Of a stretch of DNA of 64,000 nt, positions 85 to 59,666 are shown one piece after another; position 1 is the first letter of the stretch; the number at the start of each line of letters is the position of its first letter. The notes below the pieces were generated by a model. The model made no database searches. It had not been told where the DNA came from and worked only from the letters and a program-made list of their open reading frames with translations. The stretch spans positions 186,992,001 through 187,056,000 of the forward strand of contig OZ024741.1 in NCBI GenBank assembly GCA_964016885.1, given 5' to 3'. The position numbers were made by a program, and so were the translations under genes. Source of the stretch: Eledone cirrhosa (taxonomy: Eukaryota).

Positions 85-448
85 TATGATATTAAATACA
101 TGGAAACTATATTTATAAAACCATATTTATTTCGTTATATATATTTCAGGGATATCATATTAACAATATGTTATGCCATCTTCAGACAAAATACAATATA
201 AACAGTCTTATAAATAAATAGATACGACATACCTTTCAATCACCTTGCATTTGTGAGGTTGACTGCCAAATCAACCTCACAAATGCAAGGTGATTGAAAG
301 GTATGTCGTATCTATTTATTTATAAGACTGTTTATATTGTATTTTGTCTGAAGATGGCATAACATATTGTTAATATGATATCCCTGAAATATATATAACG
401 AAATAAATATGGTTTTATAAATATAGTTTCCATGTATTTAATATCATA
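85..448. repeat. Perfect fold-back palindrome (178-bp arms, 8-nt loop) of a hammerhead-bearing Penelope-type module
   Basis: 85-262 is the reverse complement of 271-448, with loop CTGCCAAA at 263-270. (TA)n follows. The same family recurs at about 18540-18700, 23620-23770, 58990-59160 and 63745-63804. Confidence 0.9.
340..405 (+). ncRNA. Minimal type I hammerhead ribozyme (mirror copy on - strand at 128-193)
   Basis: TATTTTGT-CTGAAGA-stem II containing CATATT/AATATG-GAAA-TATATATA-ACGAAATA. Stem I ATTTTGT pairs with ACGAAAT; stem III is a palindrome. Confidence 0.65.
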
Positions 449-475
449 TATTTATATATATATATATATATATAT

Positions 476-850
476 ATGGTGGCTGCCAACTCGTTTTCGA
501 GTATGGCCACTACTTTATATCCATGTAGGAGAACCCCTACCGATGTGCTGAACGAGTGTGACTTTTTAGTCCAGCCAGCGACTTGAAAACTCTGGTACAA
601 ACACTACACTTGTGACAATTATTGACACATAGTGCTGGGCCCATGGTACCATGTGACGATAAGTTCAGAGAGATCTCCAAATATAAAGCAATGCCTGTGC
701 CGTGAAGCTTTTATAGTGAGCAAAGGCACTGCACAAAGCCAGTCCCACTCTCTTAACCAAGATGATATTTACCAAAAAGAAGAACAAGTCAACATCATTG
801 GATACCATCAGGATTGCAGGTGTTATATCAGAATTTTCCTTCTCCTAGAA
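476..850 (-). mobile_element. Non-autonomous RTE-derived element, 5'-truncated copy
   Basis: Near-identical to 15274-15883. The - strand encodes CSVCTRVFKSLAGLKSHTRS, an RTE-type C-terminal zinc motif, followed by a short 3' tail and (TA)n. Confidence 0.7.
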
Positions 851-992
851 TATATATATATATATAGAGAGAGAGAGAGAGATAGATAGATCGATAGATA
901 GATAGATAGATAGATAGATAGATAGATAGATAGATAGATAGATAGATAGATAGATAGATTTCAGATAGATAGATAGATAGATAGATAGATAT

Positions 993-1708
993 ATTTCTTT
1001 ATTAGCCACAGGGGCACAAAAGAAGGGGACAAATACAAAGGGGGAAGTTTACATACAATAAAAACGTGTAAAATGTTATCACAGATGGAATTTAAAAGTT
1101 AGTCGATTTTCCCCAATAGAGGGAGACAGTTTATATGGGTAACACATACCCCCGAAAAAATGTGCAACCCTCATCTCCAGGAGTACGAAGAGCTTGTACT
1201 CCTTTCCTCTCCTCCTCCTTTTCCTCAATCTACAGGCTGATATAGAGAGAAGGCCCATTCACTCGGGCCATTCTCGCCACTTTCACCCACCTTTCATAAA
1301 ACTTGCTGCGGTACAGCACCTCTCTCTCCATCCTGATTCTTCTTCCAAAGTGGTATTTGAAAAAAAGAATCAGTTGTTGGCCGGAGAGAAAGGTGTCTGA
1401 CCTCAGCCCTTTCAACCTTGTCCACCATACAACCTCTTTCGCCATAGCTATCACACAAAGGAAAACCGCCTCTCCTTCGTTTTTGAAGGAGGGTGGCGGT
1501 TTGATCATGACAATGGACTCGGTGGTCAACTGGATTGGTCCCACCCGCGACAATAGTCGTTCTACATAGCCCCACAGGTCAGTGACGCCCGGGCAGTGTA
1601 CGAATGCGTGCGCGACGGTTTCTTCGTCTCGCACGCACCTCGGACAGATCTTTTTTGCAGGGTCCCTGCCCGGGCGCCCATGTCTGTAGAGCTTGTCTCG
1701 AACTGGTA
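993..1708 (-). mobile_element. Tx1/L1-clade LINE 3' fragment (zf-RVT region plus 3' UTR)
   Basis: The - strand reads PVRDKLYRHG...CPRCVRDEETVAHAFVHCP..LW (CCHC knuckle). The 3' UTR ends AATAAAGAAAT directly into (TATC)n. Confidence 0.8.
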
Positions 1709-2169
1709 TAGATAAATATACACGGGTGTGTATGATTGTGTATAGAAGATTATATTAATAAAAGGAATTCCAACTTTGTCTGATTTACTCGTTTTATTTA
1801 AAATCCTTTAAAATTTATAATGGTATTATAATGAAATAGTATGGTAGAATATTAAATGTTAAGTGTTAATTGAACAAGTACTTTCATGCTTTCGCAATCT
1901 TCAGGTTCATAATCTGTGGTGACAGTCAAGTTTGCAATTTTCAACTGTCGTATATATATATATATATATATATATATATATATATATATATATATATATA
2001 TATATATATATATATATATATATATATATATATATATACTTCTTCTTCGGCCGAGTTTAGACTCGCAAAGGTTCAGCACACTTTCTCTAATCGTCCCGGT
2101 CGAGCAATGACATTTCTCAGTTCATCGATGTGATCAACGTTGGCATCTCTCAGGAGGGTGTCTCAATGA

Positions 2170-58800: not shown

Positions 58801-59071
58801 CCCCACCCCACCAACACTAATACTACTACTGATGTATGTCATAATAATCCTTTGTTTTATTTTCCTCTGTAGTGCCTCATACACTCCGAAACATTGTTTG
58901 GAAATATATATATATATATATATATATATATATATAAGTAGAAGGGGTATTTAATTTGTTGGAAGTCCGACAAATATAAATGTTTATAACTGATTTAGAG
59001 CACTCAACAGTAATTGGAGTAAATATTCAATGATATTAAATAAATGGAAACTATATTTATAAAACCATATT

Positions 59072-59134
59072 TATTTTATTATATATATTTCAAGGGTACC
59101 AAGACACATTGGTACGCTTTCATCAGATAAAATA
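59072..59134 (-). ncRNA. Minimal type I hammerhead ribozyme
   Basis: - strand: TATTTTAT-CTGATGA-AAG-C-GTACCA-ATGTGTCT-TGGTAC-C-CTT-GAAATATATATA-ATAAAATA. Perfect 8-bp stem I. Confidence 0.8.
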
Positions 59135-59200
59135 CAAAGTTTGTTTTATAAATAGAGACATAGCCATGAAAATCATACCTTATCGGTTGGATATTCACTG

Positions 59201-59608
59201 GATAGACTATCCAATGAATATCCAATCGATAAGGTATGATTTTCATGGGTATGTCTCTATTTATAAAAGATAGACTATCCAATGAATATCCAATCGATAA
59301 GGTATGATTTTCATGGGTATGTCTCTATTTATAAAAGATAGACTATCCAGTGAATATCCAATCGATAAGGTATGATTTTCATGGGTATGTCTCTATTTAT
59401 AAAAGATAGACTATCCAGTGAATATCCAATCGATAAGGTATGATTTTCATGGGTATGTCTCTATTTATAAAAGATAGACTATCCAGTGAATATCCAATCG
59501 ATAAGGTATGATTTTCATGGGTATGTCTCTATTTATAAAAGATAGACTATCCAGTGAATATCCAATCGATAAGGTATGATTTTCATGGGTATGTCTGTAT
59601 TTATAAAA
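59201..59608 (+). repeat. 68-bp tandem repeat x6 at the centre of a fold-back element
   Basis: Units start at 59201, 59269, 59337, 59405, 59473 and 59541. An inverted copy lies at 59144-59205. Confidence 0.92.
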
Positions 59609-59666
59609 CAAACTTTGTATTTTATCTGATGAAAGCGTACCAATGTGTCTTGGTACCCTTGAAATA

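Follow-up and report, generated by a model that had tools for sequence, protein, structure and literature searches.

Hammerhead-bearing ends of Penelope-like elements in (TA)n of the Eledone cirrhosa genome, and two-armed retrozyme arrays that suggest two-primer copying of an RNA circle

A 64,000-nt stretch of the Eledone cirrhosa genome (contig OZ024741.1 of GenBank assembly GCA_964016885.1, forward-strand positions 186,992,001 to 187,056,000) is rich in (TA)n and other microsatellites and carries many short elements with a type I hammerhead ribozyme motif. We call this whole stretch the window and count positions from its first letter. Which elements do these motifs belong to, and how have those elements spread? 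A preliminary description, made from the letters alone, took them for protein-less Penelope derivatives that target TA microsatellites. The reading we prefer, with a rough probability of 0.68, is that the window samples 3′ ends of Penelope-like elements (PLEs) lying in (TA)n throughout the genome, most of the traced ones being truncated coding PLEs, and that one family in which no protein was found, family E, arises by two-primer copying of an RNA circle.

The first step is whether the motifs are hammerheads at all. Our type I descriptor comprised a helix I of at least 4 bp, CUGANGA, helix II, GAAA, helix III and UH, and the control consisted of 200 local dinucleotide shuffles in 500-bp blocks with microsatellites excluded. 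Nine strict folds lie in the window, seven with a perfect palindrome, against a mean of 0.03–0.1 and a maximum of 1–2 in shuffled windows, none of which (0/200) held nine or more; a relaxed descriptor (one core mismatch, 3-bp helix I) gave 15 against 1.6 per shuffled window. The preliminary description had listed seven complete folds, six of which pass the strict descriptor (8082(−), 19760(+), 32413/32723(−), 33135(+), 44932(+) and 59126(−)); in the seventh, 348(+), the core boxes, helix I and palindrome are intact and align with relatives, but the base of helix II is weak. Among the sites it called variant or partial, 4592 and 32031 carry G8>A and are intact in other copies or relatives, 18662 and 23748 have CAAA in place of GAAA, 45971 and 46797 carry U4>C, 21557 carries U4>A and has a true 5-bp hairpin rather than a palindrome as helix III, and 16743 has an intact core, yet a proximal helix I of 1 bp. 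The sites at 7660 and 19040, in contrast, consist of the GAAA-palindrome half only and are no hammerheads as they stand. Overlooked in that first survey were a family with the palindrome AGTACT (1904−, 17538−, 22910−) and mirror cores at 185−, 16040−, 20928−, 21760−, 45742− and 59626+. Self-comparison of the window showed duplicated blocks at 15–24 kb, so that cores outnumber independent insertions, and showed that the claim of no other shared sequence among families was overstated, A1, A2 and A3 being ~80% alike and H and H2 73%.

Covariation, which had been proposed as a check, is present among genomic copies. In 26 A-type ribozymes picked for diversity from 65, 89% of helix cells are paired (33–53% in slid controls), a level reached in 0/500 shuffles; 85 cells carry double-sided changes against 30 in shuffles, and 17 of the 20 base pairs have a change on both sides, although helix III is partly fixed by the selection pattern and kinship among copies inflates the test. 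An Rfam scan of the window gave no hammerhead model among the best 150 of 226 matches, only microRNA-like and similar repeat matches, and a genome search with RF00163 gave 18 matches from 74 scored, none inside the window. Could the motifs be chance matches of a loose descriptor in AT-rich DNA? The half cores at 7660 and 19040 and the 1.6 matches per shuffled window with the loosest descriptor are of the kind expected under chance, but the strict excess, the covariation and thousands of exact genomic copies against none for reversed controls refute this explanation, to which we assign next to no probability. Judged from their sequences, the window motifs are confirmed as real type I hammerhead folds and are predicted ribozymes.

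Within the window, a (TA)≥6 run lies no more than 540 nt downstream of 23 of the 26 cores catalogued. We extended this to the genome (3.0 Gb, 1,796 contigs) with sixty unselected 10-kb tiles at round coordinates, 600 kb in all, which contain 48 folds, or ~80 per Mb and ~240,000 by extrapolation, a rough estimate because the folds cluster in 23 tiles. The proposed enrichment beside (TA)n holds genome-wide on the downstream side, where 90% of the 48 folds have (TA)≥6 within 200 bp, compared with 13% of random positions; upstream the figure is only 19%. Probes of 33–39 nt have 121 (family A3), 4,054 (E), 5,105 (C), 540 (F) and 104 (H) exact copies in the genome, and each reversed control probe has zero. 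Homology to open reading frames (ORFs) of PLEs was present in 18/60 of the same tiles.

What, then, are the elements? Eight families were traced in the genome (P, A3, H, C, I, E, D and F). Five of them (P, A3, H, C and I) represent the ends of PLEs that code for protein, which supports the proposed link to Penelope and leaves the label of protein-less derivatives to E, D and F, for which no ORF was found. The window copies of the coding families and their relatives are the following.

20774–21618, both strands: family P, a 5′-truncated, putatively Hydra-clade PLE with a U4>A core and a 5-bp hairpin helix III; the plus arm has a GIY-YIG ORF remnant, the short end and core 21557, the inverted minus arm the long end and core 20928.
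20953–21411, plus strand: family P ORF of 152 aa, residues 11–152 being C-terminal linker and GIY-YIG endonuclease, 93% identical to residues 568–709 of the family P protein P0001.
16984–17194: a (TA)n run flanked by two more short 3′-end fragments of family P.
82–451, both strands: family A1, two-armed, a 97.8% inverted repeat with cores 185(−) and 348(+) and palindrome ATATATAT.
18463–18788, minus strand: family A2 copy, core 18662, CAAA for GAAA.
23549–23874, minus strand: family A2 copy, core 23748, CAAA; a local duplicate of the 18344–18788 block.
58937–59667, both strands: family A3, two-armed, with core 59126(−) intact, core 59626(+) ending after GAAA, and a 68-bp tandem repeat between.
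1756–1944, minus strand: family C copy, core 1904, AGTACT; 3′ end of a ~4.2-kb two-ORF Neptune-like PLE.
17390–17578, minus strand: family C copy, core 17538, GAAA changed to GAAC.
22705–22950, minus strand: family C copy, core 22910, intact.
45662–46051, both strands: family H, two-armed with 98% identical arms, cores 45742(−) and 45971(+), U4>C, ACAATTGT; pseudo-long terminal repeat (pseudo-LTR) of a 4.26-kb, putatively Hydra-clade PLE.
46758–47006, plus strand: H2, an older H relative, core 46797.
44700–45193 (5′ limit approximate), plus strand: family I copy, core 44932, with the non-palindromic helix III AGGACT.

An intact natural copy of family P encodes P0001, a 709-aa reverse transcriptase (RT)-endonuclease, and the 3′ end of that element matches window 21455–21618, 20774–20988 and 17052–17194. 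The endonuclease frame at 20953–21411 had 62,776 first-look genome candidates, of which the 150 scored are 88–100% identical, with open frames of up to 726 aa. By eye, P0001 carries LWR (RWR in other copies), DKT, CNCRNRADC, CDLC and CKH and lacks CCHH; Pfam gave no family for P0001 or the other PLE proteins, and the motifs rest on this reading by eye. The motif set described for the Hydra clade (PMC8557442) is found in P0001 and in the protein of family H (at locus L345, with DKI for DKT), and named relatives of the Hydra-type protein come from the corals Montipora and Porites and the anemone Exaiptasia. Judged by motifs and (TA)n target, P and H would thus belong to the Hydra clade. At locus L347, A3 precedes an ORF ~40% identical to P0001 and is the pseudo-LTR of a PLE; in 2/30 loci it lies ~1.05 kb after the endonuclease end. 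H copies flank the Hydra-type ORF at a spacing of 4,256 bp, and C copies flank, at 4.2 kb, a two-ORF, CCHH-bearing element (L342–L344) with DKG, a CX2-5CxxC linker, CCHH in the endonuclease and an overlapping ORF1. By these motifs family C would be Neptune-like; it may instead be Nematis. For family I, endonuclease (GIY-YIG ORF) homology lies upstream of 4/6 copies with AGAACT and of 0/5 with AGGACT, the window's type. The autonomous families show partial tandem pseudo-LTRs, an inverted 5′-truncated copy and a tail.

Beside these families, loci L092, L100, L107, L122, L059, L051 and L347 hold further PLE families, both Hydra-like and canonical, and 3′-end fragments at window 18344–18415 and 23374–23445 match the end of the Hydra-like PLE of L107. 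The centre of the A3 two-armed insertion consists of six near-identical 68-bp units (59201–59608), possibly left by repeated template jumps at the inversion point.

The three families with no ORF found are represented in the window as follows.

32214–33294, both strands: family E, a two-armed 310-nt retrozyme in (TA)n with cores 32413(−), 32723(−) and 33135(+) and palindrome ACGCGT; the minus arm has 2.3 units and the long end, the plus arm 1.3 units and the short end.
19440–20062, both strands: family D, two-armed, core 19760(+), palindrome ACTAGT; a ~423-nt unit that forms tandem arrays elsewhere.
12563–12847, plus strand: family D copy, 5′-truncated, beginning just before the GAAA box.
15936–16122, minus strand: family F copy, core 16040 (ATGATCAT), weak helix I.
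16661–16847, plus strand: family F copy, core 16743.
21659–21831, minus strand: family F copy, core 21760, U16.1 lost.

No ORF is attached to E in any of the 23 contexts examined or to D, for which 2/55 contexts had ORF matches that we read as neighbouring insertions, and none lies in the 2.07-kb unit of F, which occurs at two loci, 86% alike. E and D have the hallmarks of non-LTR retrozymes, that is, a tandem unit of 150–450 bp with one type I hammerhead and neither ORF nor LTR. E, D and F are likely non-autonomous passengers of PLE machinery.

Family E is the most informative of these. Its genome listing, with 4,054 exact ribozyme copies, comprises dispersed arrays of 310-bp units in which minus copies are followed by plus copies; at ~10 copies per insertion this would amount to ~400 insertions. 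We analyzed 23 insertions: the window's, the first 10 of the genome listing and 12 found by an allele, 92G. Two are one-armed and 21 two-armed, and in all 21 of the latter one arm end is short (~128–139 nt past the predicted cut) and the other long (163–172), which under independent end choice has a chance of ~1 in two million. Both ends run into TA-rich repeats, and both lie inside the unit, away from the ribozyme cut. The arms measure 0.6–14.4 units, with variable inner junction positions; all 206 unit junctions are seamless, and the 21 inversion points comprise 13 overlaps of 1–10 nt, one flush join and seven with gaps or extra bases. Variants fixed in all units of both arms number 42, and none is fixed in one arm only; sporadic variants number 39 in 62 kb, or ~6 per 10 kb. 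Frequencies within arrays are bimodal: 39 variants are fixed, 32 occur in no more than two units, a single one occurs in three, and none is intermediate. Of 47 genomic copies of 92G, all but eight fill every unit of four two-armed arrays and a one-armed one; the remaining eight matches are singletons, seven of them confirmed as one unit inside an array. Haplotypes recur at unlinked loci. Eight fixed changes fall in the ribozyme, at N7, in helix or loop II, or in helix I as wobble-compatible changes; the 16 positions that make up core and palindrome are free of them (P about 0.015, conditional on eight changes in the ribozyme). The monomer RNA has a predicted fold with a z-score of −4.4. Family E is a 310-nt retrozyme in young arrays, each with one monomer haplotype across both its arms.

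Two observations concern relatives of E. Window 7790–7954 is a degenerate older one, 73% alike over 134 nt, and others keep the region with both end sites next to a different ribozyme (helix III ACAGACTGT), which suggests a conserved protein-binding part.

The same arm structure bears on whether the inverted structures could be DNA transposons of the miniature inverted-repeat (MITE) kind, or inverted duplications seeded by (TA)n hairpins, with the ribozymes as passengers. Local duplicated and inverted blocks at 15–24 kb and a family A pair (L149) with equal ends and similar flanks would suit this idea. The unequal fixed ends of all 21 two-armed E insertions and their variable inner junctions are unlike terminal inverted repeats, however, and the same ends flank RT-endonuclease ORFs; we regard this explanation as largely refuted and very improbable.

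Is the short/long rule peculiar to E? Outside E, end type was taken as the distance to the next TA run, a crude measure that carries noise in C, D and I. The ends of two-armed pairs differ in 10/10 cases for P, 3/3 for the ATGCGCAT family and 2/2 for an ACATTGT family, in 8/9 for H (one unmeasured) and in 4/7 for F, whose other three pairs are two unmeasured ones and the local duplicate in the window. Short and long ends are a general rule across these families, with the exceptions weighed below.

How might such arrays be made? We lean, though not strongly, toward E amplifying now by double rolling-circle retrotransposition, in which a PLE dimer makes two cDNAs on one 310-nt RNA circle; we hold with slightly more confidence that both nicked (TA)n strands prime cDNA on one RNA, one per start site, a circle being run for several turns. 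Hammerheads paired through the ACGCGU palindrome would likely cut a tandem E transcript into monomers, and the monomer would likely be ligated to a circle, on which the single ribozyme, lacking a partner, would not be active. Both strands of the self-complementary (TA)n would be nicked by a PLE RT-endonuclease, likely as a dimer; each 3′-OH would likely prime cDNA synthesis at one of two internal starts ~35–40 nt apart, both strands using the same RNA; reverse transcription would round the circle for 1–14 turns, and the two cDNAs would likely be joined at short microhomologies. With a linear template, the same two-primer reaction would produce short inverted elements such as those of the autonomous families. 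The monomer bottleneck proposed here would account for clonal haplotypes in arrays that stay long. Cleavage of E, the circle and the pairing of a helper enzyme with E RNA are likely steps that we infer, and target-site duplications are unreadable inside (TA)n.

Several parts of this scheme have precedents. The protein of an anole PLE cuts and extends both DNA strands, is a predicted dimer, has two internal RT starts that define the tail, and assists its ribozyme (PMC11167929); the E ends inside the unit resemble these two starts together with the both-strand extension shown in vitro. A short palindromic helix III blocks cleavage of the monomer and allows that of the dimer (PMC4209133), and retrozymes accumulate as circles that are proposed to be copied by PLEs (PMC7229834; PMC7761336; bioRxiv 2026.07.22.740005). 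As to expression, two of four sequence runs of unknown kind gave a collapsed 340-nt contig, which a tandem and a circle fit equally.

A number of points weigh against copying of a circle from two primers with one start per strand. The E sample is non-random, 11 insertions coming from the window and the start of the listing and 12 from an allele. In the whole-unit test, 0/21 fixed positions fall in the core, which is not significant (P 0.32). Among 19 weak E relatives listed, none is an autonomous partner; the upstream match of one of them, L344, is to a neighbouring family C element, and we read it as adjacency. Anole PLE ribozyme mutants inserted normally in vitro with uncleaved RNA as the main template, and the RT start site was alike on both strands (PMC11167929); eight of nine Xenopus retrozyme dimers showed no cleavage (bioRxiv 2026.07.22.740005). 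The end rule has exceptions in A, where five of eight pairs have unequal ends and the other three comprise a long/long, an ambiguous and an unmeasured pair, and in the noisier C, with one equal and one unmeasured pair among 10. Tails are ~90 nt in P and A, and the 35–40 nt of E differ from those ~90 nt of the Hydra families here. Finally, the seamless E junctions are also expected from an uncleaved linear multimer, and three sporadic variants (60C at L241, 99T and 185C at L247) occur in one or two units of both arms, which a multimeric template or arm-to-arm conversion fits better than a monomer circle.

The last two points lead to another template, an uncleaved linear multimer from a few long source arrays, with two-primer insertion by PLEs retained, the ribozyme incidental and homogenisation taking place in DNA. 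Besides the seamless junctions and the three shared variants, it has in its favour that uncleaved RNA dominated as substrate in vitro (PMC11167929) and that long one-directional arrays of family D exist (L201–L203, at 36.05–36.07 and 45.64 Mb of contig C28, at least 10–20 kb, neighbours 94% identical), although these are older or DNA-amplified, unlike E. A daughter array cannot exceed its source, yet derived haplotypes fill 8.4+1.9 units at L239 and 6.7+4.5 at L240; homogenisation in DNA would leave intermediate-frequency variants, and none was found; and fixed changes avoid the ribozyme core. We consider a linear multimer unlikely, though well ahead of the other alternatives, and retain the circle as the preferred template for E.

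What do the palindromes contribute? The preliminary description had suggested that family-specific palindromes act as self-recognition codes for dimeric cleavage, and in full this account makes all families protein-less and each palindrome a selected code against cross-family dimers. Palindromes do differ among many families, and self-complementarity is kept by compensatory double changes (ATATATAT, ATATGTAT, ATGCGCAT), which, as a pattern in sequence, fits the known dimer model; a duplex matrix of helix III for E, D, A, F and H predicts homoduplexes stronger than heteroduplexes. However, a palindrome is a poor family code because ATATATAT is common to ribozymes with different helices I and II, P and I have no perfect palindrome, and only 22/48 genome folds have one. 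Poor pairing of unlike palindromes is automatic, a matter of geometry; the partner would moreover be in cis in tandem transcripts, and five of the eight traced families belong to protein-coding PLEs. The code is therefore weak as a claim, and we think the account as a whole quite improbable.

Three further hammerhead elements of the window lie outside the eight traced families.

7947–8100, minus strand: family G, core 8082, with an 8-bp helix I and a long branched helix II; partial second copy at 22296–22432.
4545–4713, plus strand: family J, core 4592, G8>A; CTGATGA in other genomic copies.
32000–32173, plus strand: 3′ part of family M, core 32031, G8>A, ACCGCGGT; the core is intact in a relative at L038, which also has a partial tandem of 484 bp.

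The remaining repeats of the window are varied. In the segment 15276–23973, composite blocks that meet at TA runs are clustered as duplicates and inversions, through local rearrangement or serial insertion into earlier TA targets; 17390–17723 resembles 22705–23087, 18344–18788 resembles 23374–23874, and 16176–16845 resembles the reverse of 21659–22265. A ~600-bp repeat, 94–96% alike and starting at TA runs, lies at 478–849, 15276–15887, 20108–20717 and 43723–44312; one copy has CTGACGA at 43896, where no hammerhead fold was found. A very high-copy short element ending in TA (18132–18258 and 33432–33677, partly palindromic at 33574–33677) has ~4x the depth of family E in one sequence run (X3). 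Independent of TA runs is a ~185-bp repeat resembling a short interspersed element, with many copies (3810–3996, 14466–14587, 28376–29554, 34167–35162, 36659–36853 and others), which is also inserted in a family C copy (22775–22823) and in the untranslated region of the PLE at L100. A Tc1/mariner-type transposase remnant (Pfam HTH_32, HTH_48) occupies 9779–10627 (−), with inverted ends at 9741–9833 and 10524–10616, and non-LTR retrotransposon remnants with RT and, by eye, C-terminal restriction-like endonuclease motifs and (CATA)n ends occupy 40140–41826 (+) and 49858–53807 (−). A GC-rich degenerate tandem repeat (60271–62316, periods 82/172 bp) has several CTGATGA/CTGAGGA on its minus strand, where no hammerhead fold was found.

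How does this system compare with those already described? It is already known that PLE ends carry hammerheads, that one genome can hold many such families, that helix III is palindromic, that Hydra elements target (TA)n, that inverted copies bear a tail at a single end, and that retrozymes derive from PLEs (also PMC6765202). The pseudo-LTR hammerheads of Cervera and de la Pena 2014 (PMC4209133) form, like ours, many families in each genome, are mostly dispersed single motifs left by truncated PLEs, include some opposite-strand pairs 100–700 bp apart, have a palindromic helix III and are proposed to act as dimers. Unlike in that set, most folds here keep a helix III of 4–8 nt, and the density of ~80 per Mb (~240,000) compares with ~2,000 in Schistosoma and 9,000 in Xenopus tropicalis, the descriptors being different; the estimate makes this a very ribozyme-dense genome. 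The Hydra-clade PLEs of Craig et al. 2021 (PMC8557442), which include Hydra-1_Obim from Octopus bimaculoides, share a single RT-endonuclease ORF with RWR/DKT, a CxCx5C linker, no CCHH, and CxxC + CxH, as well as a hammerhead near the 3′ end, (TA)n targets, an inverted 5′-truncated copy and a tail often at one end only. Relative to these, P and H have 3.4–4.3 kb units with long 3′ untranslated regions and very high copy number, the tails of P and A are ~90 nt and not 30–40, and the P core has U4>A. A repeat annotation of Octopus vulgaris reports active Penelope families and, in its available text, makes no mention of ribozymes (PMC13282606).

Metazoan non-LTR retrozymes (Cervera and de la Pena 2020, PMC7229834; Li et al., bioRxiv 10.64898/2026.07.22.740005) are likewise protein-less tandem units of 150–450 bp with one type I hammerhead per unit and low GC, coexist with PLEs and are proposed to be copied by PLEs through a rolling circle. 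E differs from them in being dispersed, two-armed and back-to-back, with two fixed internal ends in (TA)n and a clonal haplotype. In those studies the help of PLEs was deduced from co-occurrence and pseudo-LTR homology and not, as far as is known, from insertion footprints; nothing was said to reveal which element moves animal retrozymes (PMC7229834), and the role of the PLE hammerhead was called a mystery (PMC7761336). PAc, the Poseidon element of Anolis (Frangieh et al. 2024, PMC11167929), shares two adjacent internal RT starts, cutting and extension of both strands, a predicted dimer and AT-rich targets, but has linear templates and no strand difference, whereas here the starts are split one per arm and the template would be a protein-less circle.

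We found no description of two-armed, haplotype-clonal retrozyme arrays or of the one-short-one-long rule in a full-text search of the literature, most subscription journals lying outside that search. In E, a unit free of protein bears the two-start tail specific to PLEs, and it does so in hundreds of insertions with hardly any mutations; this makes three questions testable in one genome: whether a circle is the template, whether a PLE dimer acts on both strands, and whether the ribozyme is needed. If true, double rolling-circle copying would let one rule account for the tandem arrays as well as for the PLE tail and the inverted 5′ copy, and the genome would then show directly that circular RNAs made by ribozymes are mobilised by PLE proteins. 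The system as a whole is of a known kind, and within it the E arrays give unusually direct evidence on an open PLE mechanism.

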